A stretch of DNA of 55,783 bases, the filler included, from Dimargaris cristalligena (taxonomy: Eukaryota): the NCBI GenBank assembly GCA_003614675.1. It is 2 parts of 2 records of this genome, joined end to end, with 100 filler letters (N's around TTAATTAATTAA, not from the genome) between each part and the next. Parts side by side here need not be neighbours in the genome. Positions count along the whole stretch, not along the records: positions 27,981 to 55,783 come from ML002509.1; 1 more part is not named here. One strand, 5' to 3'. The position numbers and the translations under genes are program-made. The number at the start of each line of letters is the position of its first letter. The first letter of the stretch is position 1. The notes under the pieces are model-generated. The model had not been told where the DNA came from and searched no databases. It worked only from the letters and a program-made list of their open reading frames with translations. Positions 1 through 53,200 of the stretch are shown piece by piece.

Positions 1-392
1 AAGGTCCCAGAATATTGGATGACTAAGCAGAGGGAAAGGGAGGGGAGTTCCCAGACAATAATATTAGTCATTACAAAGGATAGGTAATACTCAGGTAACC
101 AATAAATTCAATGTGAAACAGTAGAAGGGAAAAAGAGAAAGCTATTTTTAACTGTACTTTGAATAGGGGCACAGTCGGGCCAGGGGCAGTGTGAATGCAG
201 GGGTACAGTCTAGTCAGGGGCAGGGGCTCATTCACTCGTTAGGGGCATACTTCCAATAAGTGCAAAAAATAGATAAAAAATAAAAGTGAGTAAAATGTGG
301 TAAGTTTACCACAGGTTTCATGAGAATTTACAATAAATAAATTTATATTATAGTGGGCATTGTATTATTATTAGGCACAATATAATGAGCTT

Positions 393-1215: not shown

Positions 1216-1249
1216 TTTGTCTCGGGGTTGCTTCAATACATAGCCAGTA

Positions 1250-15322: not shown

Positions 15323-16477
15323 GGTGAAAGTGGATAGTATGGAAATAGAGGCCAATGCCAAAATCGGGACTTTAATGAATAAGTAAAAAGGCAATGGGAG
15401 GGAGGAAAAGTACAGACGCGACAATGCAATGTTATAAAAAAACGAGGGGCTGAATAGGGAAGAGAGATTGTGGGTAGTTTAGGTAAAGCCGGTTCAATTT
15501 ACCTAATCGTACGGGAAGCTGTGAAGGGTATAATAGGGCCAGTGTGGCAAATTACACTTTAGATATATCAAGGCACTATTTATCTGCCTTTTTTTCTCTT
15601 GGTTGTGTTACTCGCCTTGTCATTGTGGCAGCGTTGGAATATGATGGATTTAGCTGCCAAATCGGAATTTGATCACTTGCTGACATAACCCATAGTATAT
15701 TGATGCTTTCATATTTAACTTACTCATTTGATGGTTTTGTATATCAGTTTTCAAGGCAAGTCTAGCTTGGGCAAAATGTCCAATTTAGCTGATTTATCTC
15801 CCCAGACAAACAATGGTGCCTTTGTAGTTGGCCCGATAGATATATTCTATAAGGTGTTTTATCCAACTAGCAAGGTGGGTCTCTCCTCTATATTCCTTGG
15901 GCATTAATGTGGGAGAGGTTCAACCGGGCTGTATAACGAAAAATCCGTTGGATGAAGCAAATATGACTGGTTAAAAATAAATCTCCCATATATTATCCCA
16001 TACAGTTATCATTTAAAACCTTATACAGCTGGGCCGAACTTCACCCATGTCCTTTTGCCAGGGTAATTTCCTCCCATGGGTGATTATGGTGTGATTTTTT
16101 GGGAGGTAATTGATTGAATAGGCGTAGCGATATATCCAGCACTCCAGGAAACTCAGCCTAGTAAATTCATTCAGCTGTAAAAAAAAAGAGGGGAACTTCA
16201 CAAAGTGAGGCAACACGAATTCAAGCCAAGGTAAAAGTCCAAGCATTTCTTTTCTAGTGTACAACAGCAACATTCACAGACCAGGCCACCTGCATAGCTA
16301 TATTTCTAGTCCCCGTACTTCGTTTCCCCCAACTTTGCCGAAGCCGCCGGTCACTTTCAACTGCATTCCAGCTCGCTAATCCTACATTTACCTCATAACT
16401 AAGCAACAGGCAGGTAGTAGTACATTTCGACAGACGAAACCCCCTGTTTGAAAAAAAAAAGTCACCGACGACCCAAC

Positions 16478-27880: not shown

Positions 27881-27980
27881 NNNNNNNNNNNNNNNNNNNN
27901 NNNNNNNNNNNNNNNNNNNNNNNNTTAATTAATTAANNNNNNNNNNNNNNNNNNNNNNNNNNNNNNNNNNNNNNNNNNNN
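27881..27980. other. Assembly gap of Ns containing the artificial linker TTAATTAATTAA (27925-27936)
   Basis: A palindromic linker with stops in all six frames, embedded in Ns. Confidence 0.95.
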
Positions 27981-29309: not shown

Positions 29310-30341
29310 TTAACCAATTGTATAGGCAAAATTCATACCAACAGATGGGTAAAGTAGCTATTCACTATAAGAAAATATGTCCCCATTATTCTACTATGTT
29401 TTGATTGTTATTACTATACTCTCCCTCTCTTCTAGTTACCAATTCATATTAGTTAGTCATTACCATTCTTTCCCCTACCCCTTATGTTCAAATATAACCC
29501 CACCCTTCCCCAATAGCTTACTCTTCAGCTTGCAACTTTCCTCTTGTTTTATCTATTCTGATTATTTATTTTAATAAACTCATTATTATCCCTTTGATTC
29601 CTGTCTGTCTTGCAGTACCTGGCCTCATTACCAGCCTGTCATAATAAACAGGCATGTCTGGAGGGTAGGAGTATCATAATTTGGAACTGTTGCATATATA
29701 TACAGGTGTAAACTAGATTACCAAAATATTAAAAAACTTTACTAACACCTCTTCAAGGACATACCTAAGAAAAATTAGCCCTCCTCAACCTTGTATTACT
29801 AGATCAAAGTTAATTTAATTATCTTTTCAAAAGTGACTTATAAAGTAACTATTTGAGGCTATGGAGTAGCCTACATAGTTCCCAGGCCTGAATCTTATTG
29901 AATAGATATAGGCCTAGATTTAGAGCTATACATCCCATAATTATTAATGACTACCAAAAAGGATACTCAAATACTGGGAAAAGGATGGTACAACCCAGCC
30001 CAGGGTCACCAGGAGGGAGTGGTAGAGAGTCATTTATACCATTCCTGAGCATTACAAATAAGTGATTACTAAAAACGGCTACTAGGATGACTTTAAATTA
30101 CAATTTTACAAAAAGTGGTAATTATTTAAACAACCCAAAAAGTGTATCAATGTACTAGTCATTTTAGAATAGCTATATCTTACCATTGAAAGAAAATGCA
30201 GACTTATTATTTTATACATACAAACTAGAAGAGAAGGGCTTTCTTTTAGTTATAACTATTTATTTTTCCTCTATTAAATCCTAAGTAATATATTTGTAAA
30301 ACCAAAAGTGTAAAACATGGATACCCTTTTTGGAGCCACTG
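29310..30341 (+). mobile_element. Degenerate Tc1/mariner DNA transposon (transposase relic + right TIR)
   Basis: GRSIIIWNC (~29660), ME*PT*FPGLNLIE*I*A (~29862; WPxQSPDLNPIE motif), IPEHYK*VITKNGY* (~30042), TIR-like end ctttttggagccactg (~30326-30341). Confidence 0.8.
29378..29641 (+). mobile_element. Candidate solo LTR nested in the Tc1 relic
   Basis: TG...CA ends, flanks aaata/taata (4 of 5 match), internal TATA-like motif and AATAAA; transposase-like sequence resumes right after it. Confidence 0.45.
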
Positions 30342-32492: not shown

Positions 32493-33450
32493 GCTTGGTC
32501 GAGCTCCTTTTTCCACCAATCCACCCCCCATCCTGTGAGGGTTGCGCTATTGTACATTTAGATAAAAAATTAGCAAGTACTTTACGACTTGGATGTATAC
32601 TCTCCCCGCCTTTCTAGCTTTTATAAATTTACCAATCTTGTTGTTAGCTTGAGTTCAAATTCGGAGGTTTATTTTCCTTCATACTTTAAAATTAAATACA
32701 CATCCCCCTTTTTTATACATTAAAATACAATATACCTGAGTGACAGACTAGCCGGGCAAATGACAATGAGATAGTGGGTATTGTTAGAGGGAACCCAAGA
32801 CCATTTAATGATAAGTTGGATCCAACTACATGATCCCGATAGAGCACAGGCTATACAACTTTGATTAGGGGTAGAATAGTATGCCTAGCAGTCTACATGA
32901 TGGTAATTTTCTCATAAAACCAAATTATATCAACAAAGCCAGACTCGCCCTAGAAAATAGTTCGACCCGCACCTGGTTGCTTTTGAAGAGTGAATAAGCT
33001 AACCCATGTCTATCAATTTAGCAGTCTGATTAGGGAGGCAGTTTAAAGCACCAAACAGGACTGATATCTCATCTGTAGCTACTATACACAGTCTTTTGCA
33101 TTGCAATTCCCTACTGTCCCAGTCCAACCCTTAACGCCCCCCTGAATAACATATATAATATGGCATGTCAGAGGAACACCAAAAGGCCCACAATCATGAT
33201 CAAAGTGAATGCCGCTCAGGAACCGTTACGTATTTATTGTCAAAATCGAACCATGGATACGGGCGGCGATAAGAGAGAGGGGAGGGAGGGTTGATAAAGA
33301 AACGAGTGGGGGAGCCCTAAAGAGCCTGTGGGGGGTGTAGAATAAGAGGGTGGATTTTATTCAATGTGATTACAAAGAGAAGGTTAAGAGAGGGGGAGGG
33401 AATATGTCGGACACCGTATTTTGGCTAAAACAAAATTCGAATCCCTAGAC

Positions 33451-33879
33451 TTAAGCCCGGTTGTTGTTGGGGCGACGGCCGTGGAAGCGACGGTTATCGA
33501 AAGTGGCGACCTGGGGGTTGACGACATGGACGCCGGGGACGTTGTCGAAGTGCAGGGACTTCAGCAGAGCCTTGGTGTCGGAGTCGATTTCCACGCGACC
33601 GGTGTTAAGGGCCGAGACCTCGGGGACGTAGTTGTCCTTGCGTTCGCGCTCCTCTTCCTGCAGCTTGAAGGAGATACCGCGCACGGGACCGCGCTGAATA
33701 CGCTTCATCAGATGGGTGGTGAAGCCGGCGATCTTGTTGCGCAGACGCTTGGAAGGGATGATGGCCACCTCGTCGCAGATGCGCTTGTTGGTCTGGAAAT
33801 CCAGAGTCAGGCGGGGGTAGTATTTCTCAATAACGACCCGGGAGGCCTTCTTGACGGTCTTGGTTCTAACGCGGCCCAT
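33451..33879 (-). CDS. RPS17: 40S ribosomal protein eS17
   Basis: [63 protein letters not shown]. Confidence 0.98.
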
Positions 33880-33892
33880 GGTGGATTATTGT

Positions 33893-34441
33893 CTATAGGT
33901 GTCCAAAATAAGCGCGGTGGGGATAGGGCAAATGTGCAGGCAAAAAAAGTATGGGGGGGGGGGGGGGTAAGTAAGGTGGTGGATTCCCAATGGTTAGATG
34001 GGGGGAGAGGAGCTGACAGTCGCTTCGAAGTGATTCATGATTAGCCCATGGGGAATGGGGCGAACCAAATCCCCCGCTGGCCAATCGACCACATAACATG
34101 AGGGGTGGCTCGTATGCCCCGCACTTCGACACCGCATCTGAAAACATCCATCCATCGCCTAGCCGTTCCGTAAGTCCGGCGAATCGAGGGGGGTCAACAG
34201 TGGTTTCGAACTAGTGTTGTTACCACTGATATATTCGTAGTGTCGAATAGGTAGGTGTTACATCGATTAGCTCACAGACTGACGGATGGATGGCTAGTCG
34301 GTCGATCGATGGATGGGTGGGTGTTACTCGACGGGATGGAGAGGTTGGCCGATGATGGTGCGGGGGTTCGGAGTGGCATCCGTGACGAGCGTACGGGCTG
34401 GGTCGGCTAAGCTATAGAGGGTGGACGTCAATCGCACGTAC
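33893..34441 (-). other. RPS17 5'-UTR intron (structured)
   Basis: Donor GTACGT at 34441, branch-like CTAAC at ~33992, acceptor TATAG at 33893, 13 nt before the ATG. Confidence 0.75.
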
Positions 34442-35067
34442 CACTTCTCGAAATACGACGGCTGTGTGGGTATGTCAAAGCGAAAAAGAGAGGGAGCCTT
34501 GATGGGGTCCGGGTGGATTTAGCTTATAATATGGACTACTTTGTGGATGAATTTCTTGTCTACCCAACTTGTATGATCTGTGCCCCACCTGTAGAATGGG
34601 CCCCTCCATGGGTGCCGCTTACTTTACGCCGCCTAGCCAGCGACTACCACACTATTGCCGCAAACTCTCTTTCCATGAAGGGTGAGGGGGGGGGGGCGGC
34701 TCCTACCCCTCCATCTGGGCCAAATGGCATACAGGCCATAGTTTGCGTTAAATCACGTGATAAGTATAACCTAGGGTCTCTTTCAGGGCAATTTCGTTAT
34801 CGACCACGCACTATTCGGGTTTCCATGTGCTGTGGTCTATTCATAACTCTAATGTCAAAATACCTTGGAGTGGCCCTTGAATCTAAGCAACTATACCTAT
34901 CCTTCACAGGATTCCTGCCAGCGGGCGACCTCCCATCTCATATTTACCCTGTACTGGCTAATACCCCTAATACTATAGTCCCATAAAGCCCGCCCTTCCT
35001 GATTCCCCGCCCGTTCCCTACCCATTAATATATAGTATATTACACCATTGAAGGGGCCTTGCAAACT

Positions 35068-35793
35068 ATGGCGGACACCAGCTCCTCCGACGCAAATGGC
35101 AACCTCGGCTTCAAGCTCCGCAATTCCCTCCAGCGTTACCAGCAAGTAGCCCAACATTGTCTTGCGAAACTCGACTACACTCAGACCATCGCCTACCTGG
35201 CCAAAATATGCAGCATCCTCGATAATACCACCGACCCGGCCCTCCAGTCTTCCCTATTCACCACCCCGGACCAGCCCCCTATTTTAACCCTCCATCGGAC
35301 CGCACCGGTCTCCACGGACGGCGACTGCGCTCCGCCAGCCATACCAGCGGCCACTAATCCACCCTTTAGTGAACTGGATTTAGCCCTGGTGAATGATTTA
35401 TCCCTCGAGCGGCTAGTCGCGAACAACGGAAATCCAACGGATGGTCAACAGGCCGCTCTTCCCGGTTCCACTCCATGGAACCCGCATTCTCATTCACACT
35501 CACATTCGCACTCGCCAGCGAATGGCGCGGCTCGACTTAAGCGCTCCTTGGCTCACCTTAAGGGAGTGGCCTATTGGAATTTGGGGGATTGCTATCAACG
35601 GGCGGGACAGGTCATTCTGGCCGAGACGGCCTTTGAACAAAGCTCGCTGTGGTTTTATCGCGCGCGGGAAACCAAATGTAATTTACTGGCACTTGAGCAT
35701 CTGGTCCAGGTTGAAGAGGCATTGGGCAAACATCAATTGGCGGCTAACCTTAGGCGTCGTATGGCTAAAATTAAAGCAGCCGAAAGTTCCTAA
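35068..35793 (+). CDS. Hypothetical helical/TPR-like protein, copy 1
   Basis: 241-aa ORF from ATG; C-terminal AYWNLGDCY..AG..AE.AFEQS TPR-like pattern; (HS)n tract. Confidence 0.7.
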   Translation: MADTSSSDANGNLGFKLRNSLQRYQQVAQHCLAKLDYTQTIAYLAKICSILDNTTDPALQSSLFTTPDQPPILTLHRTAPVSTDGDCAPPAIPAATNPPFSELDLALVNDLSLERLVANNGNPTDGQQAALPGSTPWNPHSHSHSHSHSPANGAARLKRSLAHLKGVAYWNLGDCYQRAGQVILAETAFEQSSLWFYRARETKCNLLALEHLVQVEEALGKHQLAANLRRRMAKIKAAESS

Positions 35794-36610
35794 TGATGTG
35801 ACTTGTAGGGCGCGTTAGTAAGACTGGCGAGTATTTTCAGAATAATTTATTACACTTGTACATAATAATGCTCATACGACCATTGGGGTTGGAGTTTGCC
35901 CTTGCGTTTTTAGGTGCCGTTAAGTATCAACAATACACAAGCGAATCTCCCGTATTTTTAATAAAGCTAACCCCACTTCATCGTTTCAACTTCCAATGCA
36001 GTAAATCAATTGTAACTAGGTTGGCCAGCCTAAATATAGCTAATCTATTGTAGCTGTGCAAGAGGAAATGATGTGTGGTATTGACAGGTTGATGACCAAG
36101 TTAAGGTTGTCCGCCATCTAATTCACATCATCTAATAGCTGTCGTCACGCTGTATTTCGCTAAGACCCACCACCCTTCAGAGCCATAGGTATGGAAGGCA
36201 GGGGAGATCTTTCCCACAGAAAGACGGCAGGTAATAGCGCTTAAGATATTCCTAGCAATGCTACTACCCCCAACCATACACCCATTATTGGCCATCGAGA
36301 CTATAGGTGGAACTTGCGCCTTTCACTATTATCCAACCACGTGATATCAAATCATACCAACCACTAACTACTCTTATACACTATAGTCAAATCCCTCAAC
36401 CTCCTTGGCTGGGGAGATGGGAAGGAGGCGGCGGGGTGTGGTAATGGTGGGAGGAGGGGGGGGGTTTGGAGTAGGTTGGTGGGTGGTGAACTGCACAATG
36501 TAGGAAACACGGTAATTATAATCGATTCAGCCCCGCCATTGACAATTCCTCCTTTCCTCTTCACTCTTCCTGTATCAACCATCTGTGTCATATACAGTCC
36601 GAACGACGTG

Positions 36611-37017
36611 GTATGTATCCAACTCCCCAGAGACTAGCCGATATTCGATGACTTTACGGCCCTTCCAATCCATCCATCCACTGCTCCTACGCCCGTTGCC
36701 CCCCCGTCAGTGCCTCGCATGTCCGAATGTCGCGGAAGCCTCGTTGTAATGACCGGCCTTTACTAATGGTCACTACCTACCGAGATGTTCGATATTTTTT
36801 GGAGGACGGATCAAACAACAGCAGTTCACTGAACTGTATGCGAGTAATAACGGACCGACGAACGGATGGATGGATGGATAGGCCGATAAGTGTATATACA
36901 AACCCCTAAACGGAGTATCCGTGGCCCGTACAACGTTACTAATTTGTGATTATGCATATTTTATCTCGACTGACCACTCTGGTACCGATTCCCTTTATGC
37001 CTCCCCGATCGCCACAG
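36611..37017 (+). other. RPS10 5'-UTR intron (structured), copy 1
   Basis: Donor GTATGT at 36611, CTGAC branch at ~36970, acceptor CACAG at 37017, 8 nt before the ATG. Confidence 0.75.
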
Positions 37018-37025
37018 CCTGCAAG

Positions 37026-37313
37026 ATGCTGATTCCCAAGAAGAACCGCCAGCTCATCTACGAGACCCTCTTCCGCGGTATGTAACCAGTTTCATCGCTG
37101 TCCTTCCCCTCATCTCCGTCGCAACACGAACTCGGTACATTTATTGTCACTATTGGGGAATCCGCCTTCGGGCGGATTTCCCGGGTTTGTAGATTATGGG
37201 ATGCGCAAACTATTTCTTCTCACTAAGCTTACTGAATAATGAATACCCCGTTGATTGTGCGTAACGCTGTCTAATTCCCGAAATTCTCTATCCCCCTATT
37301 ATCATCTCTTTAC

Positions 37314-37347
<34 letters not shown>

Positions 37348-37749
37348 GGAGTCATGGTCGCCAAGAAGGACTACAATGCTCCTCGTCACCAGGACATCAA
37401 GGTGCCCAACCTGCAGGTCATCAAGGCCCTGCAGTCCCTGGACTCCCGCGGCTACGTCAAGACTCTGTTCTCGTGGCAGTGGTACTACTATACCCTGACT
37501 GACGAGGGTATCGAGTACCTGCGCACATTCCTCCACCTTCCCGAAGATGTGTACCCCGCTACCTTCAAGAAGGCCATCCGTGCCCCTGCCCCCAGCTTCA
37601 GCGGTCGCCCCGATCGTGATGGTTTCCGCCCCCGCGGTGACCGCGACAGCTACCGTCGTGATGACGGTGCCAAGAAGGAAGGTGCCACCGGTGACTTCAA
37701 GCCCGAGTTCCGTGGTGGATTCGGTCGTGGCCGTGCTGCCCCCCAATAA
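37026..37749 (+). CDS. RPS10: 40S ribosomal protein eS10, copy 1; exons 37026-37077, 37346-37749
   Basis: MLIPKKNRQLIYETLFR|EGVMVAKKD..PNLQVIKALQSL.SRGYVK..FSWQWYYYTLTDEGIEYLR. Confidence 0.97.
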
Positions 37750-38673
37750 AGAAAGAGCGGTAACACATAGCTGATTATGTACATCTCCCCCCCTTCCTCT
37801 CCCCAACACCCTCCCCCCTCTATCACAACAGTCTCTCCACACCGCTGCTCTTCTCTCACATCTGTCTTCTCGTCAAGTAGGTCGTGAGCGGGACAATTAC
37901 ACGCCACACCGTTTTCTTCAAAATAAAACTCACTTGCTGAATTTAATAAATATAACCGCTATCTTCCAGGTGACTCTTTGTGACGAATTAGTATTCATAC
38001 AGAAATATCTGTAAGGAATGATGTTCAGCCTGGGGGGAAATGTGTTTGTTTGTTGATGATGGGGAGCCCATTTCTCAAACAACGGCCTTGAGAGTCTAGC
38101 CCGGTAACTCTAAGATCAATCTGTTCGAAGCATCGGAGTCCGCGTCAATTCATTTGTCGTGATATCGCTGAAATCGATATTATAATCCTTTGAAATATGT
38201 ATTTAAGGGGCGATTTTCATTGCAGCGGTCGTTTTATAGTTGTGGGTTAAGTCACATTTTATTGAAGGCATAGTATTGAAGCTACAGGGGAGCGACACGG
38301 GTCTCCCACAAAAAAAAAATATAAAATAAGAACGCACAAAGTCAATATAACAAGTGCACTACACAACAAGGGAAGGGGGGCTATAAATTGGACAATTGGT
38401 CACAAATACACAACGAATAGTGGAATTAATGCAAAAAATTAGTCCGCGACAGGGAGGGGGACGTAGACCATGGATTAATTCCGGATGTTGGAAGAGAGGC
38501 GAGGCTACTACGAGGGGAAATGCGGGGGTTTAGCCTGCAGGGTCACAGTTGTACTAAGGACATATATAAAAAAAAGGGAGTATAGGGTAGGACGGATATT
38601 TGTAACGCAGGGAAATGTATATCACGAACATGAGCCAGAGAAGCTGTTTGGCGTCAGCGTACGGTTACGGAGT

Positions 38674-39953
38674 CTACATTTCCAATTCAAAGACACCGGG
38701 GTGCTTATCTGTTAGTTGGCATTGTAAAACGGGGCAGCAAAGTACAGCAGAAGCAAGAGGATGGGGTGAGAAGCCAAAACAAGAGGGTGTATATGGTGTT
38801 GACGGGGGGATATAGAAGGAGGTTGGTACCTCCCCTAATACGTTAAATATTTCATCTCATCGGACGATCGCATCAAAGTAACTAAGGTGCCAATGATTCC
38901 TTCGTAATCCACTGAATCTATCAATATAGAGAGAAAGCTGGGGTATAGCCTAGAGTCTGTTGCATACCTTTATCGGCATCCGCGTTCGCCGTCACGGGCG
39001 GGTCAAGCTCCTCGTCTTCCTCGGCCTGTTCCTCTAAGCTCATGGTCATAAGTTTGGGCAGTGGTTCGGCGCTGTTGAGCAGGTGGTTATCTCCGTTGAG
39101 CTGGGGCAGAGCCAGTTTGTTGGCGGGGGTATTGGGGGGCGCGCGGAAGCCGGGTTGTTGGTTACCGCCAATCGATGAGCTCAGCTTGCCCCCGTTTCCG
39201 GTGGAGGTGGAGTACGACTGCGGCTGGTGTTGGTTGTTGTTGTTGCTGTTGCTGCTGCCACCGCCACTGCGGAGATTACTGCTGTGGACGGGACGGGTGG
39301 ACTGCTGGGTCCCCAGATGGGGTGCGCGGTAGGTCCCAGCCGAGCTGCCAGTCACCCCGGGAATCACATTCATGCGCGACGGAGGAGTTTGCGAGAGGGG
39401 GGAGTTACTTAGGGCTAGGAGCTGTTGGCGACCGTAGACAATGCGGGTTCCTATCATAAATCAGACGATATGCGTCGCAAATGGGTATTCGGTACAGGAT
39501 TTAATAGGCAAAGCGTGGAGGTGAACAGATGGTCATTTAGTTAGCTGGGTATCCAATGTCGCCAGGCTAGGCCAGGGGCTTTCGTCGACTAGTGATTCGG
39601 AGTGGCATACACACCATTTACGTAGCATGTAATCCGGGATTCCCTCTATACAGCGTCCCCCTCTACGCTTAGGACGTGCCTGATACAGCCGGACATCATC
39701 AAGTACAGTGGCTGGCGGTATACAACACCCGTTGGAGCGCCCGCCTAAACAGGAGGGTGGCTAAGAATAGGTTTTTAGAGGGACAGGGGCCGCCAGGACT
39801 ATCAACGGTTAGGGTGTGCTTACCGCGTGGGGTGGTGGAGAAGATCGTTCCACCGGGAGTGGTACCGTAATCCTCGGGGATCTGCTCATCGGGCCGGGCA
39901 CGCCGGGTGGGGATATGCCGAGCGGAAGTCGGAGTTGTAGTGGAGGCGGTCAT
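38674..39953 (-). CDS. EIF4EBP: eIF4E-binding protein (4E-BP), copy 1; exons 39953-39824, 39450-38968, 38708-38674
   Basis: DYGTTPGGTIFSTTPR|GTRIVYGRQQLL (YxxxxL-phi), NSPLSQTPP; last exon DKHPGVFELEM* is a TOS-like motif. Confidence 0.92.
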
Positions 39954-40020
39954 GTTGAAGGCGGGCCAAGGAATATAGTGGGTAGGAACAGAGGGGAGGA
40001 GGGGGTATAGCGAGGGCAAT

Positions 40021-40362
40021 CTGGAAAAGGACAGGAAAGGGAAGAATGCACAAATAAGTATAGGTGGAACAGAGGGTGGTTTCCCCAGTGCTACTACATT
40101 CCAGGTTAAAAAAATGGCAGTAGATAGATAGGGCGGTGTAGGTTCACCTAGAGAGCTGACTGACTATCAAAGTGACTTTGTTGGAACTGGCCCAACACCC
40201 CCCTTCGGCGAGTGACACAGGGGCCGGGGGAATCCCTTCGTTCCAGGCGGGCCGCATCGGCTACTTGAGAGCCCGCGACGCCTGAGAAGAAGGGGGGATG
40301 GGTTGAGACGCGGCAATTACAGGCTGGGCGAAGTTTAATAATAATAGGCGAGAGCGACTTAC
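40021..40362 (-). other. 4E-BP 5'-UTR intron (copy 2 at ~46505-46846)
   Basis: GAG|GTAAGT donor; long pyrimidine tract ending in CCAG. Confidence 0.65.
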
Positions 40363-41551
40363 CTCAAAGCGGGCAGGGAATGCTTCGAGCTGGGAAGGAA
40401 GCAAAGCTATAAAACCGGGCAGGCAAAAAAAGTATGGGGGGGGGGGGGGGGTAAGTAAGGTGGTGGATTCCCAATGGTTAGATGGGGGGAGAGGAGCTGA
40501 CAGTCGCTTCGAAGTGATTCATGATTAGCCCATGGGGAATGGGGCGAACCAAATCCCCCGCTGGCCAATCGACCACATAACATGAGGGGTGGCTCGTATG
40601 CCCCGCACTTCGACACCGCATCTGAAAACATCCATCCATCGCCTAGCCGTTCCGTAAGTCCGGCGAATCGAGGGGGGTCAACAGTGGTTTCGAACTAGTG
40701 TTGTTACCACTGATATATTCGTAGTGTCGAATAGGTAGGTGTTACATCGATTAGCTCACAGACTGACGGATGGATGGCTAGTCGGTCGATCGATGGATGG
40801 GTGGGTGTTACTCGACGGGATGGAGAGGTTGGCCGATGATGGTGCGGGGGTTCGGAGTGGCATCCGTGACGAGCGTACGGGCTGGGTCGGCTAAGCTATA
40901 GAGGGTGGACGTCAATCGCACGTACCACTTCTCGAAATACGACGGCTGTGTGGGTATGTCAAAGCGAAAAAGAGAGGGAGCCTTGATGGGGTCCGGGTGG
41001 ATTTAGCTTATAATATGGACTACTTTGTGGATGAATTTCTTGTCTACCCAACTTGTATGATCTGTGCCCCACCTGTAGAATGGGCCCCTCCATGGGTGCC
41101 GCTTACTTTACGCCGCCTAGCCAGCGACTACCACACTATTGCCGCAAACTCTCTTTCCATGAAGGGTGAGGGGGGGGGGGCGGCTCCTACCCCTCCATCT
41201 GGGCCAAATGGCATACAGGCCATAGTTTGCGTTAAATCACGTGATAAGTATAACCTAGGGACTCTTTCAGGGCAATTTCGTTATCGACCACGCACTATTC
41301 GGGTTTCCATGTGCTGTGGTCTATTCATAACTCTAATGTCAAAATACCTTGGAGTGGCCCTTGAATCTAAGCAACTATACCTATCCTTCACAGGATTCCT
41401 CCCAACGGGCGACCTCCCATCTCATATTTACCCTGTACTGGCTAATACCCCTAATACTATAGTCCCATAAAGCCCGCCCTTCCTGATTCCCCGCCCGTTC
41501 CCTACCCATTAATATATAGTATATTACACCATTGAAGGGGCCTTGCAAACT

Positions 41552-42277
41552 ATGGCGGACACCAGCTCCTCCGACGCAAATGGCAACCTCGGCTTCAAGC
41601 TCCGCAATTCCCTCCAGCGTTACCAGCAAGTAGCCCAACATTGTCTTGCGAAACTCGACTACACTCAGACCATCGCCTACCTGGCCAAAATATGCAGCAT
41701 CCTCGATAATACCACCGACCCGGCCCTCCAGTCTTCCCTATTCACCACCCCGGACCAGCCCCCTATTTTAACCCTCCATCGGACCGCACCGGTCTCCACG
41801 GACGGCGACTGCGCTCCGCCAGCCATACCAGCGGCCACTAATCCACCCTTTAGTGAACTGGATTTAGCCCTGGTGAATGATTTATCCCTCGAGCGGCTAG
41901 TCGCGAACAACGGAAATCCAACGGATGGTCAACAGGCCGCTCTTCCCGGTTCCACTCCATGGAACCCGCATTCTCATTCACACTCACATTCGCACTCGCC
42001 AGCGAATGGCGCGGCTCGACTTAAGCGCTCCTTGGCTCACCTTAAGGGAGTGGCCTATTGGAATTTGGGGGATTGCTATCAACGGGCGGGACAGGTCATT
42101 CTGGCCGAGACGGCCTTTGAACAAAGCTCGCTGTGGTTTTATCGCGCGCGGGAAACCAAATGTAATTTACTGGCACTTGAGCATCTGGTCCAGGTTGAAG
42201 AGGCATTGGGCAAACATCAATTGGCGGCTAACCTTAGGCGTCGTATGGCTAAAATTAAAGCAGCCGAAAGTTCCTAA
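41552..42277 (+). CDS. Hypothetical helical/TPR-like protein, copy 2
   Basis: Protein identical to 35068-35793. Confidence 0.7.
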   Translation: MADTSSSDANGNLGFKLRNSLQRYQQVAQHCLAKLDYTQTIAYLAKICSILDNTTDPALQSSLFTTPDQPPILTLHRTAPVSTDGDCAPPAIPAATNPPFSELDLALVNDLSLERLVANNGNPTDGQQAALPGSTPWNPHSHSHSHSHSPANGAARLKRSLAHLKGVAYWNLGDCYQRAGQVILAETAFEQSSLWFYRARETKCNLLALEHLVQVEEALGKHQLAANLRRRMAKIKAAESS

Positions 42278-43509
42278 TGATGTGACTTGTAGGGCGCGTT
42301 AGTAAGACTGGCGAGTATTTTCAGAATAATTTATTACACTTGTACATAATAATGCTCATACGACCATTGGGGTTGGAGTTTGCCCTTGCGTTTTTAGGTG
42401 CCGTTAAGTATCAACAATACACAAGCGAATCTCCCGTATTTTTAATAAAGCTAACCCCACTTCATCGTTTCAACTTCCAATGCAGTAAATCAATTGTAAC
42501 TAGGTTGGCCAGCCTAAATATAGCTAATCTATTGTAGCTGTGCAAGAGGAAATGATGTGTGGTATTGACAGGTTGATGACCAAGTTAAGGTTGTCCGCCA
42601 TCTAATTCACATCATCTAATAGCTGTCGTCACGCTGTATTTCGCTAAGACCCACCACCCTTCAGAGCCATAGGTATGGAAGGCAGGGGAGATCTTTCCCA
42701 CAGAAAGACGGCAGGTAATAGCGCTTAAGATATTCCTAGCAATGCTACTACCCCCAACCATACACCCATTATTGGCCATCGAGACTATAGGTGGAACTTG
42801 CGCCTTTCACTATTATCCAACCACGTGATATCAAATCATACCAACCACTAACTACTCTTATACACTATAGTCAAATCCCTCAACCTCCTTGGCTGGGGAG
42901 ATGGGAAGGAGGCGGCGGGGTGTGGTAATGGTGGGAGGAGGGGGGGGGTTTGGAGTAGGTTGGTGGGTGGTGAACTGCACAATGTAGGAAACACGGTAAT
43001 TATAATCGATTCAGCCCCGCCATTGACAATTCCTCCTTTCCTCTTCACTCTTCCTGTATCAACCATCTGTGTCATATACAGTCCGAACGACGTGGTATGT
43101 ATCCAACTCCCCAGAGACTAGCCGATATTCGATGACTTTACGGCCCTTCCAATCCATCCATCCACTGCTCCTACGCCCGTTGCCCCCCCGTCAGTGCCTC
43201 GCATGTCCGAATGTCGCGGAAGCCTCGTTGTAATGACCGGCCTTTACTAATGGTCACTACCTACCGAGATGTTCGATATTTTTTGGAGGACGGATCAAAC
43301 AACAGCAGTTCACTGAACTGTATGCGAGTAATAACGGACCGACGAACGGATGGATGGATGGATAGGCCGATAAGTGTATATACAAACCCCTAAACGGAGT
43401 ATCCGTGGCCCGTACAACGTTACTAATTTGTGATTATGCATATTTTATCTCGACTGACCACTCTGGTACCGATTCCCTTTATGCCTCCCCGATCGCCACA
43501 GCCTGCAAG

Positions 43510-43797
43510 ATGCTGATTCCCAAGAAGAACCGCCAGCTCATCTACGAGACCCTCTTCCGCGGTATGTAACCAGTTTCATCGCTGTCCTTCCCCTCATCTC
43601 CGTCGCAACACGAACTCGGTACATTTATTGTCACTATTGGGGAATCCGCCTTCGGGCGGATTTCCCGGGTTTGTAGATTATGGGATGCGCAAACTATTTC
43701 TTCTCACTAAGCTTACTGAATAATGAATACCCCGTTGATTGTGCGTAACGCTGTCTAATTCCCGAAATTCTCTATCCCCCTATTATCATCTCTTTAC

Positions 43798-43831
<34 letters not shown>

Positions 43832-44233
43832 GGAGTCATGGTCGCCAAGAAGGACTACAATGCTCCTCGTCACCAGGACATCAAGGTGCCCAACCTGCAG
43901 GTCATCAAGGCCCTGCAGTCCCTGGACTCCCGCGGCTACGTCAAGACTCTGTTCTCGTGGCAGTGGTACTACTATACCCTGACTGACGAGGGTATCGAGT
44001 ACCTGCGCACATTCCTCCACCTTCCCGAAGATGTGTACCCCGCTACCTTCAAGAAGGCCATCCGTGCCCCTGCCCCCAGCTTCAGCGGTCGCCCCGATCG
44101 TGATGGTTTCCGCCCCCGCGGTGACCGCGACAGCTACCGTCGTGATGACGGTGCCAAGAAGGAAGGTGCCACCGGTGACTTCAAGCCCGAGTTCCGTGGT
44201 GGATTCGGTCGTGGCCGTGCTGCCCCCCAATAA
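43510..44233 (+). CDS. RPS10: 40S ribosomal protein eS10, copy 2; exons 43510-43561, 43830-44233
   Basis: Same as copy 1. Confidence 0.95.
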
Positions 44234-45157
44234 AGAAAGAGCGGTAACACATAGCTGATTATGTACATCTCCCCCCCTTCCTCTCCCCAACACCCTCCCC
44301 CCTCTATCACAACAGTCTCTCCACACCGCTGCTCTTCTCTCACATCTGTCTTCTCGTCAAGTAGGTCGTGAGCGGGACAATTACACGCCACACCGTTTTC
44401 TTCAAAATAAAACTCACTTGCTGAATTTAATAAATATAACCGCTATCTTCCAGGTGACTCTTTGTGACGAATTAGTATTCATACAGAAATATCTGTAAGG
44501 AATGATGTTCAGCCTGGGGGGAAATGTGTTTGTTTGTTGATGATGGGGAGCCCATTTCTCAAACAACGGCCTTGAGAGTCTAGCCCGGTAACTCTAAGAT
44601 CAATCTGTTCGAAGCATCGGAGTCCGCGTCAATTCATTTGTCGTGATATCGCTGAAATCGATATTATAATCCTTTGAAATATGTATTTAAGGGGCGATTT
44701 TCATTGCAGCGGTCGTTTTATAGTTGTGGGTTAAGTCACATTTTATTGAAGGCATAGTATTGAAGCTACAGGGGAGCGACACGGGTCTCCCACAAAAAAA
44801 AAATATAAAATAAGAACGCACAAAGTCAATATAACAAGTGCACTACACAACAAGGGAAGGGGGGCTATAAATTGGACAATTGGTCACAAATACACAACGA
44901 ATAGTGGAATTAATGCAAAAAATTAGTCCGCGACAGGGAGGGGGACGTAGACCATGGATTAATTCCGGATGTTGGAAGAGAGGCGAGGCTACTACGAGGG
45001 GAAATGCGGGGGTTTAGCCTGCAGGGTCACAGTTGTACTAAGGACATATATAAAAAAAAGGGAGTATAGGGTAGGACGGATATTTGTAACGCAGGGAAAT
45101 GTATATCACGAACATGAGCCAGAGAAGCTGTTTGGCGTCAGCGTACGGTTACGGAGT

Positions 45158-46437
45158 CTACATTTCCAATTCAAAGACACCGGGGTGCTTATCTGTTAGT
45201 TGGCATTGTAAAACGGGGCAGCAAAGTACAGCAGAAGCAAGAGGATGGGGTGAGAAGCCAAAACAAGAGGGTGTATATGGTGTTGACGGGGGGATATAGA
45301 AGGAGGTTGGTACCTCCCCTAATACGTTAAATATTTCATCTCATCGGACGATCGCATCAAAGTAACTAAGGTGCCAATGATTCCTTCGTAATCCACTGAA
45401 TCTATCAATATAGAGAGAAAGCTGGGGTATAGCCTAGAGTCTGTTGCATACCTTTATCGGCATCCGCGTTCGCCGTCACGGGCGGGTCAAGCTCCTCGTC
45501 TTCCTCGGCCTGTTCCTCTAAGCTCATGGTCATAAGTTTGGGCAGTGGTTCGGCGCTGTTGAGCAGGTGGTTATCTCCGTTGAGCTGGGGCAGAGCCAGT
45601 TTGTTGGCGGGGGTATTGGGGGGCGCGCGGAAGCCGGGTTGTTGGTTACCGCCAATCGATGAGCTCAGCTTGCCCCCGTTTCCGGTGGAGGTGGAGTACG
45701 ACTGCGGCTGGTGTTGGTTGTTGTTGTTGCTGTTGCTGCTGCCACCGCCACTGCGGAGATTACTGCTGTGGACGGGACGGGTGGACTGCTGGGTCCCCAG
45801 ATGGGGTGCGCGGTAGGTCCCAGCCGAGCTGCCAGTCACCCCGGGAATCACATTCATGCGCGACGGAGGAGTTTGCGAAAGGGGGGAGTTACTTAGGGCT
45901 AGGAGCTGTTGGCGACCGTAGACAATGCGGGTTCCTATCATAAATCAGACGATATGCGTCGCAAATGGGTATTCGGTACAGGATTTAATAGGCAAAGCGT
46001 GGAGGTGAACAGATGGTCATTTAGTTAGCTGGGTATCCAATGTCGCCAGGCTAGGCCAGGGGCTTTCGTCGACTAGTGATTCGGAGTGGCATACACACCA
46101 TTTACGTAGCATGTAATCCGGGATTCCCTCTATACAGCGTCCCCCTCTACGCTTAGGACGTGCCTGATACAGCCGGACATCATCAAGTACAGTGGCTGGC
46201 GGTATACAACACCCGTTGGAGCGCCCGCCTAAACAGGAGGGTGGCTAAGAATAGGTTTTTAGAGGGACAGGGGCCGCCAGGACTATCAACGGTTAGGGTG
46301 TGCTTACCGCGTGGGGTGGTGGAGAAGATCGTTCCACCGGGAGTGGTACCGTAATCCTCGGGGATCTGCTCATCGGGCCGGGCACGCCGGGTGGGGATAT
46401 GCCGAGCGGAAGTCGGAGTTGTAGTGGAGGCGGTCAT
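45158..46437 (-). CDS. EIF4EBP: 4E-BP, copy 2 (native upstream region); exons 46437-46308, 45934-45452, 45192-45158
   Basis: Same as copy 1 apart from one synonymous Leu change. Confidence 0.9.
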
Positions 46438-49400
46438 GTTGAAGGCGGGCCAAGGAATATAGTGGGTAGGAACAGAGGGGAGGAGGGGGTATAGCGAGGG
46501 CAATCTGGAAAAGGACAGGAAAGGGAAGAATGCACAAATAAGTATAGGTGGAACAGAGGGTGGTTTCCCCAGTGCTACTACATTCCAGGTTAAAAAAATG
46601 GCAGTAGATAGATAGGGCGGTGTAGGTTCACCTAGAGAGCTGACTGACTATCAAAGTGACTTTGTTGGAACTGGCCCAACACCCCCCTTCGGCGAGTGAC
46701 ACAGGGGCCGGGGGAATCCCTTCGTTCCAGGCGGGCCGCATCGGCTACTTGAGAGCCCGCGACGCCTGAGAAGAAGGGGGGATGGGTTGAGACGCGGCAA
46801 TTACAGGCTGGGCGAAGTTTAATAATAATAGGCGAGAGCGACTTACCTCAAAGCGGGCAGGGAATGCTTCGAGCTGGGAAGGAAGCAAAGCTATAAAACC
46901 GGGCAGTGGAAAGACACACAGCCCTCCCAAGGGGGAAAATATTCGCCAAACCACCACCGACTCCACTACTCACAGTCTCTCTCTCTCAGGCTTCACCATC
47001 AATTTTCCTCTCCAACCCACCTATACCACGGCCCTTTTTTTTCTAGTCATGATGGTTTCAGGCTCTCACACCAATGGGTGAAGGTTGTCGCGTAATCCAT
47101 GTAGTAATCGTTGGTTTTACCCCTCTATACTTTCGCTCATTTAGGCGGTTGGTGGGTTTACCATGTATACTATAAAGTGGCAGCACCTACTACGCAACTA
47201 AATATATATATATATATATATATATGTATTTAAATATATAAAGGAAAGCGAACAGGCGTAAGCACAGCAGCAGCGCCATTGATTTTCCATCCACCATACT
47301 TGGAAGGGCTGATTCGTAGCTGGTCAATCTGGGGGGCCCATGCCTCTTTCATCGATGAACACTCGCGACCAGGCTTCGCCATTGGTGGTGGTGTATCACA
47401 TCCCTTCTCAAATGGGGCGGCCATCGTTGCTTCGGTGTCCTTGTGACCCTAATTCACCCATTATCCTCCAAAACGGCATCCGCCTCTCTCTACCACCCCG
47501 ACGCATAAGCAGGGGTGTGGGGTGAGTGTGTAGGGTTAGTATAGCATGGTGGGAGTATGCCATGTAAGCCCTACTGCTTCCTCCCTTGACCTCGTACTCC
47601 ACCACTTGGCTCCGATACGGCCCCGGCCTGCTGAGTGAAACAGTCCACAGGAGGACTTTCCCACTCCGCTATGCCAGGTGCTGCTTATCGAGTCACAGCG
47701 TAGGGCTTGTACGAAACATCCCAAGGTTCTACTAGCGGCGTACCCTCATTATGCGGGGCGTCTCGTATCGAAACCCTTCTTACCCCGAGGACCTAATGGG
47801 GGAAGGTTTGGCTTGGTATTCGCCAGGTAAGTAGAACCACCGCCGTCTCGCGCTAGTGGGTATCCTCTATACTAACATGTGGTTTATGTTAATGGTGTTC
47901 ATTACCCACTCACATGATATCTAACTGTACTGCAATGCTTCCGTTATAATCACGTCGTCTGAACGGTGTTTCAGTTTGGAGTTAATAGGACACGTATTAT
48001 AAACAGTGCTATTAAAATCCAAAAGCAGCTTACCCGTTTACCAAATTGCTGCTCATTTAAACCACTTGCCTTACATTAGCCGTGGGGGGATATTCAAAGG
48101 CCTATTGCATCTATTATATCACTGCCCCTTTCGAATTACCAATAAGGGTGGCTGTTTGGTTAGCTCCTATCCGCCAGTCTGAAAATAGCGATTCGACCAA
48201 GCGGAGATACACCTACGTAGCTTGGAGGAAACATAGTGGTGATGGAGGATGTACATAGCCATGGTGTTACTCGACCCTGTGAGTCGACAAACCGGTCTTA
48301 AATCACCACTAACGACCATCCCCCCGCTTATTCTCGTCCCTAATTTTAAACGGCACATACATGGGCTGGGTTTGGGCGTTTCCATACCAAGAAAAAAGAG
48401 CCGGAGATTCCGAAGTTTGGAAATGTAGTGGAGAAATGATAATATATGTATAGTATCTAAATATGTCACTGTTCTCTAGATGTTGAAATCATACAGCGCA
48501 GGCCTTGCTTACTTTTATACAGGCTAGACCAAGGTAAGAAACGCCGAAAATGGTAGTTTCCTAAAAAGCCTTAGTTGCATTAACTTCTAAAACGAGCCAT
48601 ATTCATATATCCGGCTGTCTGGCCAGAAAGCGTAAAAGAAGTGTAGCGACACTTTGCCTTAAATCGGATGGGGAGGAGTAGGTAGCAGGAGATGGCCCGC
48701 CCTACTTTTGGCCATACTTCCAAATACTCGGGAGTGTCCAGTCGCGTATTATTGCCTATACTATTTTCAATTTGGCGGTGGCCCTGTACTACTCGTTGTA
48801 ACGCTCTTGTATAACCGGAGTTCAATCATCCGATATATTTTCATATGAATCCGCTATTTCTACCCCCCCTTCCTCCCTTAGTTTCAGATTTTACGAATCA
48901 GCTAGGGCGAAGTAGGTAAACAACACGTCATCGAATCCGTTGGAAAAGCTAGGTTGATGAAAAACTGGTTTAGTAAATTCTTGATATCCTGGTTTTTGTA
49001 GAGCGGTGTTAGTTGAATAATCCGGAGACAGTATTTAAATTGCAGCGATGGTAATAAGTAGTGCTCAAGCCCAGATACGTAGAGTTAGGAGGGACTATTT
49101 AGCAAATTAGCCTCTTTTGTAAAGCGGATTGTTAAATCCCCTTCTTGTAACTAGCGCCTGTGAGACCCGGCGCGGGGGCAATCGTTACTAGGTGCTGTAT
49201 TGATAACAACACCCTCCCCCAGCCTTCACAATAATCAAAAACCGCGTTCGTGTCCACCGTTGAGGCAGAGATATACAATCCACCTCTAAAGGACTCCCCG
49301 CTCCCGGACCAGAAAATGTTGAAACCAATCTAAACTTAGCCTATAGTGAATATACTATATTACAATAATGAATAGCTGATGTGCAATAGTCATTTTTATT

Positions 49401-50289: not shown

Positions 50290-53200
50290 AGGTTGTCTCG
50301 AGATCAAAATCGTATATTCCGCAATATATAGATCATTTTATCGAACCCCAGATTGACGCTGGCTTACCGGAATAAATGATAATGACTGCTACCAGCTATC
50401 GTTTCAACATCTGTACAATTATATTTAAATATATATTTGCATCGGGGTCATCATAAATGTATATATATATATATATATATAATAAATAATAGTATCAATG
50501 TTGTCTGAAGGTATGTATTATGCAGCGCTTCTACTACAGCCTTTAACGCTATCCAACTGGGGGAATTGCGAACTGAGTGTTAATTTAAGGGAGACAGTCA
50601 ATTAATAGACGATTCGGCTTTTGGAATATGATCAGTGCACGCGCTAAGGTCACACAGCTGGGTGCACAATAAGATCCGTAAACTAAATAGTATAATAGGC
50701 CAAGGGACGGAAAACACGGGTGGTTTTAAGCGGCTCGTATGTGCCAAATATCTATATGGGTATGGTGATTAGAAGGGCGGGCTTTTTGAAGGCAAGATAT
50801 TAAAAATCCATCTAATAATTGCATTTTTCGCCAATCACTTTAACCACTATAAATAGTGTTGTAAGGAAGTGCTTCAAGTAATTCCGAGGAGGTTCAGTGT
50901 GAGCAGTGCAGCTAAGAGTTGTGAGCTCTGGTAATACTGAATCTCCCAACATTGCCCATCGGTTGAAAATCCTAAAGGACCACACAGTGGGAGAATACCT
51001 GGGTATGACTAACACTGCCAAAGGTGTGGCAGAAGTTAGTCACTGGGTTAAATCCGGCGCTGATATAGACCCACTCAATTCCTATTCGGCATTTGTCCTT
51101 TTGCCTTGATTTATTCATTATTGTCGGCTTGTTGACACGAGGACTAAAGTAAAATAAAAACCTGGCTAAAATGACACTGGTTTTCAATGTGTTGCCATCC
51201 CATCGATTGCCCAATCCCCAAGCCTGATTATGAAGGGCGGAGGCGGTTTAGGTAGTTGCATATGGGGGAAGTTCGGTCTGGCTGTAAAACGAATTCTCCC
51301 CTTGGTAAACATGATTTTACTGGTCTAAAATTCCGTTCCCTCTTATTTTTACATTGCCGTTCAATATACTTGTGCCGCACAAGCCAGTGGCTTATTCTAT
51401 CTACTAGCCTCATTATTTTGGGTATATCCACCTAAATATCACTATTTATTGAATGTCCGGGCGAACATGATAATGAACTATCCCCCACTTTTTATAATGC
51501 ATTCGATAATATATCAGTGTAAACATATAGCAAAAATGCGTGGCTTTACAGAATCCTTCGAGAAGCAAAAGGGCAAGATTTTACTTAGCCGGTTGTCTAG
51601 TAGCCATTAGTTTCCCTCCATCAGATATCCATGTATTGCTATGATGATATAGGGGTGGTTCCGAATCGGACAAGGGTATCGCTGTACTATATGTGGCCTT
51701 ATGAATTGAGCAGGGTATACTGAGCACCGTTTTCAAATGCAATCACCCCACGGTGACATCAATGTGCCGAGATTACTTGGGGGCTGAATGGAATAGTGGC
51801 TATTGTGGTGGACCGGAAAGGCTTTGGACATGTCTTCTGGACTAACGTTTAGTATAATGATAAGCCCCACCGGGTATAATAATCAAGGAGGATGAGGAGA
51901 GAGAGATAGGGATTTGGCTAGTTTATCCGTGAACTAATATATCACGTATAAGCCACCGTGGTCTCGCTACTCCTCCGTGGCAGTCCCCTTGCAGCCATGT
52001 GCCGGCCCCTATCGCAACCATCGCCCTCGTCCCCACAGTTATTGCCATTACCTTTGCGATAACGATACAATGTCTGGGGGGACCGATGTTTGCAGTAGCG
52101 GTGCCTGGGATTGGTAGTCAACTGACTTTTCCGTTCTCATCGGAATTATACCGGTCAATAACGGGTGCATTGTATTCATTGGGCCATCTGCGATTAAGCA
52201 GCTAAGTTGGACAAATGGTTTCTCTCTTTGGGAATCAGTTGGGATTCTTTGACTTTGAAACTAAGGGATACCGGTAGCGAGGGTTTGGGGGTGTTAGGGC
52301 TACCTACTATGCACCAAATCAAGCAAATGGGCCTAGAGTGCTATACCCTTACTTATACCCTGACCACCATCTCCACTACTACCATATACACAACCAAGCT
52401 GCTTTGCTACCCAAATGACTACTCTCACCCTTCCTACACTGGTCGCAGGGATTTCATTCACAGCCACTTATTTCCCTCCACCTCTTTATTACCCGTAGAG
52501 TCCATCAGGGGGAGAGTAGAAGGCAATATGTAATCTAAAACCACGCCCAGCCATTGCCAAATGCATCATGTCCGCCTCCTTCGACAAATTTTCCCTTCGG
52601 CCATTTTGCATCCGCAAAGTCTCCCTCCCCCTTCACCATGTGAGGGAGAGGTTTAATAGGAGGGGGTGGGGTGGGTGGATTCATTAGCAATGAGTGAGAG
52701 TATCGGTTAAACAAAAGTATAGTATAGTATAGTGTAGTATAGAAGGGGAAGGGAGGGGAGGAGGGTTGCAGTTTTCCTGCGCCGGTCTCGGACTCACAGA
52801 CCGCCTAAGTGAAACCCCGCTGCCGCCGAACCGAATTTTAATATAAATGGTTTATGTTTCGCCTTCGATTCACCTTGGTTTCGAACAAGCCAAATGTACC
52901 AATTTCTATTAATCAAATTCCAACTTTTCTCATCTTAAAGGGTATTAGGTAGACTATTCCGTATTCTAATTGTTTTGCTCACGCTACCACCACCACTAAC
53001 CACTTCATTCAATCCCTTCCGGTGAGCTGTGTATACTTTTTGATTCATTTCCCTTTTCCGCCAATTTTCATTTCAAACTACCCTAATTTCGGGATTCACC
53101 TTGTACCGAATTCAAGACCCTTGACCTACGTTCGTACACTATTCGATACTTCCCCTGGTGCTCCTACGGGCCCCTGGACGTGTTTCGCGTTGCCTTGATC

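Follow-up and report, generated by a model that had tools for sequence, protein, structure and literature searches.

In budding yeast, long introns of ribosomal protein (RP) genes commonly carry zipper stems, which have been assigned with high confidence in 32 of 88 Saccharomyces cerevisiae introns; in the portions of the report available to us, the stem of RPS17B is given as essential for efficient splicing, the stems as a group are poorly conserved in sequence and spread over disparate introns, and their definition requires that the distances from 5' splice site to stem and from stem to branch point add up to a total linker of 42 to 85 nt and that at least 6 bp have high helix confidence from probing in vivo (PMC12350175). 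Other structured fungal introns are known as well. As far as the accessible text of PMC3609843 goes, introner-like elements (ILEs) are longer than ordinary introns, have a stable predicted structure and decay quickly until they become indistinguishable, while the excerpts at hand of PMC8469720 describe fungal introns with terminal inverted repeats of 45 to 55 nt, and those of PMC5640933 describe the rpl7-l8-s3 motif, a structured motif with covariation that occurs in introns of different RP genes and has 29 representatives in 25 species. Here we describe an imperfect inverted repeat of about 240 nt upstream of RPS10 in the fungus Dimargaris cristalligena (assembly GCA_003614675.1) and its counterpart upstream of the neighbouring gene RPS17, both closed by opposed CCAT and GGAT runs and both predicted to fold into long hairpins inside putative 5' untranslated region (5'-UTR) introns. 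All positions refer to the window, by which we mean the whole stretch of 55,783 nt that was analysed. Within it, the repeat and its predicted fold are specific to the leaders of these two RP genes, which show no homology to each other beyond the closure.

The RPS10 repeat lies on the plus strand. A first-pass annotation had placed it at 36665-36882, and every stem that it drew is present both in the sequence and in the predicted fold of that stretch (-72.6 kcal/mol, z -3.20; equalled or bettered by 2 of 200 shuffles). The inverted repeat itself is real, but it is wider than had been drawn, that stretch being the core of a robust hairpin of 241 nt (36651-36891) that extends outward through the helices CGGCC/GGCCG (36657-36661 / 36881-36885; P 1.00, and 0.99 with exon context) and ACUU/AAGU (36651-36654 / 36888-36891; P 0.89). 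These helix probabilities (P) come from partition-function folding of the putative intron at full length, repeated with exon context added. The hairpin is also closed by UCCA/UGGA (P 0.87) and UCCAUCCAUCC/GGAUGGAUGGA (P 1.00), and the closing pair ATCCATCCATCCA / TGGATGGATGGAT contains an 11-bp (CCAU)n:(GGAU)n core (36669-36679 / 36864-36874) whose P=1.00 is retained when exon context is added. Its two strands belong to a (ATCC)n-type 5' closing arm at 36664-36679 and a (GGAT)4 3' closing arm at 36864-36879, the latter reported by TRF. Other helices of the stem are CGUUG/CGACG (P 0.95), CCGU/ACGG (36704-36707 / 36850-36853; P 0.95) and the CTCGCAT/ATGCGAG pair (36714 / 36838), which forms as the 6-bp helix UCGCAU/AUGCGA (P 0.95). 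The apical region (36722-36837) is branched, as had been proposed, though only one of its two hairpins is well defined: CAGTTCA/TGAACTG (36822 / 36830) forms the 7-bp hairpin GCAGUUC/GAACUGU (36821-36837, P 0.97), whereas the other, which does bear TACTAAT at 36761-36767 between TGACC (36750) and GGTCA (36768), has a helix P of 0.19-0.54 in the full-intron ensemble. Only one variant was seen within the element, a C-run at 36699 in an internal loop of the 5' arm that is 1 base shorter in three DNA runs from one study.

The hairpin probably lies within a 5'-UTR intron, the splice signals being good and this status being assigned, here and for RPS17, from consensus signals only. A putative non-coding leader exon (36560-36610, +), a CT-rich tract whose approximate start is inferred, ends in GACGTG and is followed by a putative intron of 407 nt (36611-37017, +) with GTATGT at 36611, TACTAAT at 36937-36943, CTGAC at 36970-36974 and CAG at 37015-37017. 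From 36930 the sequence is AG-free as far as the first AG (37016), the CAG ends 10 nt before the ATG at 37027, and on reading the sequence between the hairpin and this ATG no second good 5' splice site was seen. At 273 nt upstream from the putative 5' splice site, the RPS10 promoter has a CACGTG box (36338-36343, +), part of CACGTGAT at 36338-36345.

The RPS17 element, 2.4 kb away and on the opposite strand, is indeed present where the first-pass annotation had located it (34145-34315, -) and is likewise CCAT/GGAT-closed. These positions form the core of a hairpin at 34117-34365 (-), whose outermost helix, a weaker one, extends to 34108-34390 (P 0.22 with exon context). Its closing core CAUCCAUC/GAUGGAUG (34315-34308 / 34152-34145) has P 0.91, or 0.92 with exon context, and the outer closure CCCCGCAC/GUGCGGGG has P 0.72, or 0.76 with exon context; other helices of the core are UAGCC/GGCUA (P 0.98), UCCGU/ACGGA (P 0.99), AGUCUG/CGGACU (P 0.97) and AAUCGA/UCGAUU (P 0.94). 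The putative RPS17 leader intron, 549 nt long (33893-34441, -), begins with GTACGT at 34441 directly after GAAGTG, continues through CTAAT at 34044-34040 or CTAAC at 33997-33993 and a C-run, and closes with a TAG whose last base, 33893, is 13 nt from the ATG; a shorter intron ending at AG 34024 or 34014 is an alternative. Here too the promoter holds a CACGTGAT box (34759-34752, -), separated by 318 nt from the putative 5' splice site downstream, and the distances of the two boxes from the 5' splice sites fit transcription starts upstream of the hairpins. In both hairpins a long interrupted stem of some 30 bp, with CCAT/GGAT runs as its closure, leads to a tip of two or three small hairpins.

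On the sense strand the predicted stability is moderate, with z between -3.2 and -3.7 for RPS10 and between -4.4 and -5.5 for RPS17. Folding of 36611-36899 gave -92.5 kcal/mol (z -3.74), folding of 34135-34325 (-) gave -62.0 kcal/mol (z -5.50) and the longer RPS17 stretch 34108-34390 (-) reached z -4.38, and in none of the three cases was any of 200 shuffles as good.

The closure is what the two elements have in common. With at most one mismatch, CCATCCATCCA is matched 19 times in the window where 1.5 matches would be expected; the two elements and their duplicates account for 18 of the 19, and a closure of this kind is present in no other gene region there. The further motifs that had been read as marks of a common architecture, CCGTCAGT, ACGGA and ACCTACC, do occur in both elements and in the same order, but they do so at chance level. 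Once CCAT/GGAT is masked, chaining the shared 6-mers in collinear order gives a score of 26, compared with 29 +/- 7 for shuffled sequences (196 of 300 shuffles did at least as well), and the remaining shared motifs are therefore chance; by arithmetic, about one shared 8-mer is expected between two sequences of some 285 nt. Alignment of the RPS10 and RPS17 introns was not significant, since the best local score of 26 was reached by 13 of 300 shuffles and equalled in the antisense comparison, and a consensus fold computed from the alignment of both contained essentially nothing (-5.2 kcal/mol, 17 pairs). A search of the whole window with Rfam 15 returned no match at gathering and, up to E 10, none that overlaps the elements. 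[quoted passage not shown]

The arms themselves may be decayed, opposed (ATCC)n and (GGAT)n tetranucleotide arrays. Over about 60 nt the G-rich arms carry a period-4 signal, with a lag-4 identity of 0.52 in RPS10 (36838-36899) and 0.62 in RPS17 and about 0.2 at neighbouring lags, and the element interiors have no such signal. Where they can be aligned, the two arms of each element are 85% (51/60) and 90% (73/81) complementary with many indels, the 5' arm being 46-49 nt longer than the 3' arm in both; the closing helix is perfect over 11-13 bp and the remainder has diverged. Further copies were sought at a likeness of at least 80% in the contigs of four of five DNA runs from two studies, a threshold that older and more diverged copies could escape, and none was found in those contigs. 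Runs X1, X2 and X4, which leave 33300-33915 without cover, have one contig per run over each element, while X5, with depth in 7 of 30 bins, has no full-length cover. In each of the four runs one extra contig matches 36847-36881 only, with 5 mismatches, and in X5 a further contig matches 36859-36879; such partial matches look as if they came from a (GGAT)n-like locus in another place. No target-site duplication was seen at the core or extended repeat ends on reading the sequence, no formal search having been made.

Our results lead us to suggest, with a rough probability of 40%, that each element is a microsatellite-armed inverted repeat that has been tolerated or kept because its self-folding keeps an over-long leader intron spliceable. 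The transcribed RPS10 repeat would fold into a long stem, interrupted and branched at its tip, looping out 241 of the 407 intron nucleotides (about 60%), and its RPS17 counterpart would loop out 249-283 of 549. With the robust helices formed, the path from 5' splice site to branch point would shrink from 331-362 nt to 91-134 nt in RPS10, nearer to that of an ordinary fungal intron, and from 400-447 nt to 118-199 nt in RPS17. Arms built of repeats can pair in several registers, which would make the closure robust. The hairpin would in this way be a passive splicing aid, or at least a tolerated insertion.

Several observations weigh against this explanation, and three of its steps, namely the intron status, the fold in vivo and the help to splicing, are ones that we infer. 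The RPS10 repeat folds in antisense as well as in sense or better: the antisense of 36665-36882 reaches -85.8 kcal/mol (z -4.59) and that of the wider stretch z -3.81, as would be expected of a plain DNA inverted repeat without selection at the RNA level. A window-wide Lfold scan with z-scores (minimum length 180 nt, z <= -2.5; 795 structures in 186 clusters), which was preferred to 200-nt sliding windows that are too short for a 240-nt hairpin, placed the RPS10 element 5th by its antisense fold (z -5.12) and the RPS17 element 8th by its sense fold (z -5.01), but the RPS10 sense fold (36651-36892, z -3.86) fell outside the 40 best of the 186 clusters. Better folds occur away from RP genes, at 4154-4373 (z -5.98), 29835-30059 (z -5.39), 7802-7990 (z -5.37) and 50751-51070 (z -5.16). 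Strong folds are thus not peculiar to RP leaders, since non-RP regions score as high or higher, although the CCAT/GGAT clamp is; a count of long-range pairs did not discriminate. Even when folded, the total linker of 91-134 nt in RPS10 and 118-199 nt in RPS17 exceeds the 42-85 nt given for zipper stems in the accessible part of that report (PMC12350175), and a purely structural role leaves the shared CCAT/GGAT closure unexplained.

Distant relatives offer no help to it either. A metagenome search with RPS10 exon 2 recovered 39 loci at 40-81% identity, none of which has paired CCAT and GGAT runs upstream, and a look for inverted repeats upstream of RPS10 in 14 of the 39 found nothing comparable; the only repeat found, in a locus of 70% identity (L032), is 24 nt long with 71% complementarity, is unrelated in sequence, and has a 3' arm that abuts the ATG. 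The same locus has a leader-intron-like GTGAGT...CTGAC...CAG upstream of its ATG (L032:1290-1545), and in the closest relative (L035, 81% identity) a long leader intron is absent. The lack of a counterpart in these loci argues against deep conservation and is uninformative for close relatives.

The most serious competitor, which we regard as possible though doubtful, is that the hairpins are neutral relics: an inverted duplication, or a foldback, MITE-like or introner-like insertion based on (GGAT)n, would have landed in both leader introns or created them, and would now be decaying without a role. Such an origin agrees with the symmetrical stability of the two strands, with arms that are highly complementary where aligned yet rich in indels, with the absence of any sense-strand excess of G.U over A.C mismatches (0 versus 2 in one element and 2 versus 1 in the other, hence no strand signal in either), and with the distance of only 2.4 kb between the elements. 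Precedents lie in the long, structured and fast-decaying introner-like elements and in the fungal introns with 45-55-nt terminal inverted repeats, as presented in the available parts of PMC3609843 and PMC8469720, respectively. It sits less easily with the failure to find another copy at 80% likeness or more in the contigs of the four DNA runs, where the 35-nt (GGAT)n-like match was all that turned up elsewhere, with the lack of a visible target-site duplication at any plausible repeat end, with two elements that are not significantly alike outside the closure, and with a closing helix that is still perfect over 11-13 bp despite divergence elsewhere. A clamp common to neighbouring RP genes is not fully explained by any ordinary reading; local duplication across 2.4 kb would be its cheapest account.

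The first-pass annotation had gone further and proposed a class of RNA switch, specific to RP leader introns, that would coordinate the splicing of r-protein pre-mRNAs through a common factor or conformational change, for example during starvation or TOR inhibition. We consider this improbable. The proposal can point to a CCAT/GGAT-closed hairpin in both of the two cytosolic RP genes and in none of about 14 other genes of the window, to the two CCAT runs in the RPS17 5' arm, which could be alternative pairing partners of the single GGAT run, and to the rpl7-l8-s3 motif, which in the consulted portion of PMC5640933 sets a precedent for a structure common to different RP introns. The introns here are nevertheless not significantly alike and yield no alignable consensus structure, the named motifs are at chance, no Rfam family matches, and the apical domains have different sequences and different numbers of hairpins. 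Neither stability nor mismatches show a preference for the sense strand. The sole candidate for a switching helix, GUAUGUAU/GUAUAUAC over the 5' splice site, has P 0.93 in the intron alone and P 0.05 once the upstream leader exon is attached, and for that reason we do not build on it. In yeast genes of the RPL30, RPL7B and RPS22B type, a conserved intron structure is bound by the cognate protein or competes with a splicing-enhancing fold. Adjacency of the two genes means that local duplication explains their likeness more cheaply, and the shared CACGTGAT promoter box, with its CACGTG of the E-box type that Cbf1 binds in fungal RP regulons, already provides a route to co-regulation of RPS10 and RPS17 and would be a simpler basis for it. 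A novel RNA switch, or a regulon of splicing, makes a weak case on present evidence, and our data lend neither of them any support. A narrower version, in which a lineage-specific RP leader-intron module clamped by (CCAU)n:(GGAU)n, with a clamp length that evolved by slippage, is read by a common double-stranded RNA-binding or splicing factor that co-tunes RP splicing, seems to us quite unlikely.

If transcription started downstream of the hairpins, they could instead be promoter features acting at the level of DNA, as a repeat to which protein binds or as a spacer prone to forming cruciforms. The symmetry of the repeat would suit this, as would the fact that, apart from CACGTGAT, only the CCAT/GGAT runs are common to both RP upstream regions, but consensus 5' splice sites that follow directly on CT-rich tracts, together with branch-point-like boxes, AG-free pyrimidine tracts and a YAG 10-13 nt before each ATG, make such a role improbable, and the CACGTG boxes would then stand some 650-850 nt from the start codons. 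A long, mainly Watson-Crick stem with a perfect helix of 11-13 bp could also serve as a substrate of the RNase III or Dicer type, giving small RNAs or leading to decay of the unspliced pre-mRNA or lariat, or the intron could host a small nucleolar RNA (snoRNA), since RP introns often host processed RNAs. We think this very improbable, as the stem is heavily broken by asymmetric loops. As a host of a snoRNA or microRNA, the element was rejected: there was no Rfam match in or near it at E up to 10, and canonical C/D or H/ACA boxes were not seen on reading.

The content of the window reads as fungal nuclear DNA. RPS17 and RPS10, assigned by Pfam, are its two cytosolic r-protein genes, and the approximately 14 other genes include no further cytosolic r-protein gene and one for mitochondrial L19. 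The RPS17 coding sequence (CDS) is a single exon at 33451-33879 (-; Pfam Ribosomal_S17e, 2.7e-63), and the RPS10 CDS at 37027-37749 (+; Pfam S10_plectin, 9.9e-35) consists of exons at 37027-37078 and 37346-37749 around a coding intron of 267 nt (37079-37345). On reading its sequence, this coding intron contains a near-perfect 11-bp hairpin of its own, GGGAAUCCGCC-UUCG-GGCGGAUUUCC (37156-37185), and it ends in a (TA)n microsatellite (37318-37345) that runs into the TAG 3' splice site and at which the contigs of all four DNA runs compared break. 

Both hairpins occur twice in the window owing to a direct tandem duplication of 6.49 kb, in which 33936-40422 is repeated as 40419-46906 with 99.92% identity (4 mismatches and 1 gap) and with GCAG microhomology at the junction (about 40416-40425). 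The duplicated unit contains RPS10, a TPR gene, an eIF4E-BP-like gene, and the promoter, leader exon and hairpin of RPS17, the RPS17 CDS being excluded. Its left breakpoint coincides with a G-run within the RPS17 leader intron, and, because contigs break at this G-run, a real duplication cannot be separated from an effect of assembly. The second RPS10 hairpin lies at 43135-43375 (+; offset 6484, with the core at 43149-43366) and the second RPS17 leader hairpin at 40601-40849 (-), the latter with no RPS17 CDS after it. Motif and local-fold scans showed no differences in the elements between the tandem copies, and as near-identical duplicates the second copies are uninformative. Beside both RP genes, at 38921-40163 (-) and in the copy at 45405-46647, two open reading frame (ORF) pieces match Pfam eIF_4EBP (profile positions 5-47 and 46-97), which suggests an eIF4E-binding-protein-like gene divided by an intron.

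Elsewhere in the window, a 27-nt inverted repeat with 78% complementarity, arms 84 nt apart and no CCAT/GGAT is found upstream of a WD40 gene (15910-16047), and the Lfold z-score of 15900-16060 is -4.43. Positions 27881-27980 consist of TTAATTAATTAA between two runs of 44 N and resemble an artificial linker between two contigs, so that the window is probably a stitched scaffold. The first 8 kb (1-8000) hold diverged direct repeats of 70-85% identity at a spacing of 4.3-5.6 kb and no ORF of at least 120 amino acids; the window's strongest local folds (4154-4373, z -5.98; 7802-7990, z -5.37) also lie in this part, which looks like decayed repeat or transposon DNA.

Should the two hairpins aid splicing, the zipper principle would reach beyond budding yeast, and self-folding would let a long intron act as a short one where the spliceosome normally handles very short introns. 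Opposed tetranucleotide arrays would then offer a simple evolutionary route to such stems. Should they be relics, they would record the growth of two leader introns.

How these elements relate to known systems depends on the feature that is compared. They resemble MITEs and foldback transposons in being short and non-coding, in having inverted repeats on their flanks and in being able to form hairpins, and their terminal inverted repeats are of the kind expected of that group; unlike them, they belong to no recognizable family, and neither target-site duplication, on reading the sequence, nor multiple dispersed copies, at 80% likeness or more, were seen. Foldback elements have arms built of short subrepeats. 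Judged by regular fungal intron sizes, the putative introns of 407 and 549 nt are longer than regular, and they have stable predicted structures (z -3.74 and -4.38), as introner-like elements do, but they lack the many copies of the latter. Going by the sections of PMC3609843 at our disposal, the ILEs of Dothideomycetes share with them length, stable predicted structure, canonical splice signals and occurrence in unrelated genes, and differ in having tens to hundreds of near-identical copies, whereas here the two introns are not significantly alike and the contigs of the four DNA runs yielded no further copy of at least 80% likeness. The internally symmetrical sister (stw)introns of Hypoxylaceae, as described in the available part of PMC8469720, are comparable in their imperfect inverted repeat, potentially double-stranded intron RNA and lack of target-site duplications; those introns are multi-copy and highly similar, and have terminal repeats and a WTTCTAGAAA palindrome. 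The RPS10 repeat ends at 36891-36899, leaving at least 118 nt up to the 3' splice site, and is not terminal as in the Hypoxylaceae introns of that account, and with up to 2 mismatches the palindrome is absent from both hairpins.

The rpl7-l8-s3 motif and other fungal RP candidates, in so far as the accessible text of PMC5640933 presents them, are likewise long hairpins with internal loops that occur within introns of different r-protein genes; motifs of that type are conserved in sequence across many species, and none for RPS10 or RPS17 appears in that text, where neither name occurs. Our elements have no Rfam 15 match, the coverage of rpl7-l8-s3-type motifs by Rfam 15 not having been checked.

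The closest likeness in behaviour may be to zipper stems, which, according to the portions of PMC12350175 that we could draw on, are also poorly conserved in sequence, differ from intron to intron and include RPS17 itself among the genes that have them. What sets our case apart from those stems is a filamentous-type fungus with normally short introns, a location in the 5'-UTR, and a predicted stem of about 30 bp in several helices that arises from inverted tetranucleotide repeats and has a branched tip. Where that definition requires at least 6 bp, the closing helix here has 11 bp with P=1.00, a thermodynamic estimate only. Distances from 5' splice site to stem and from stem to branch point, 40-46 plus 51-88 nt in RPS10 and 51-76 plus 67-123 nt in RPS17, lie above the zipper-stem minima as given there. 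We would accordingly describe the hairpins as elements that may work like zipper stems, without giving them that name, since they respect the minimal distances and exceed the 85-nt maximum of the definition in the text available.

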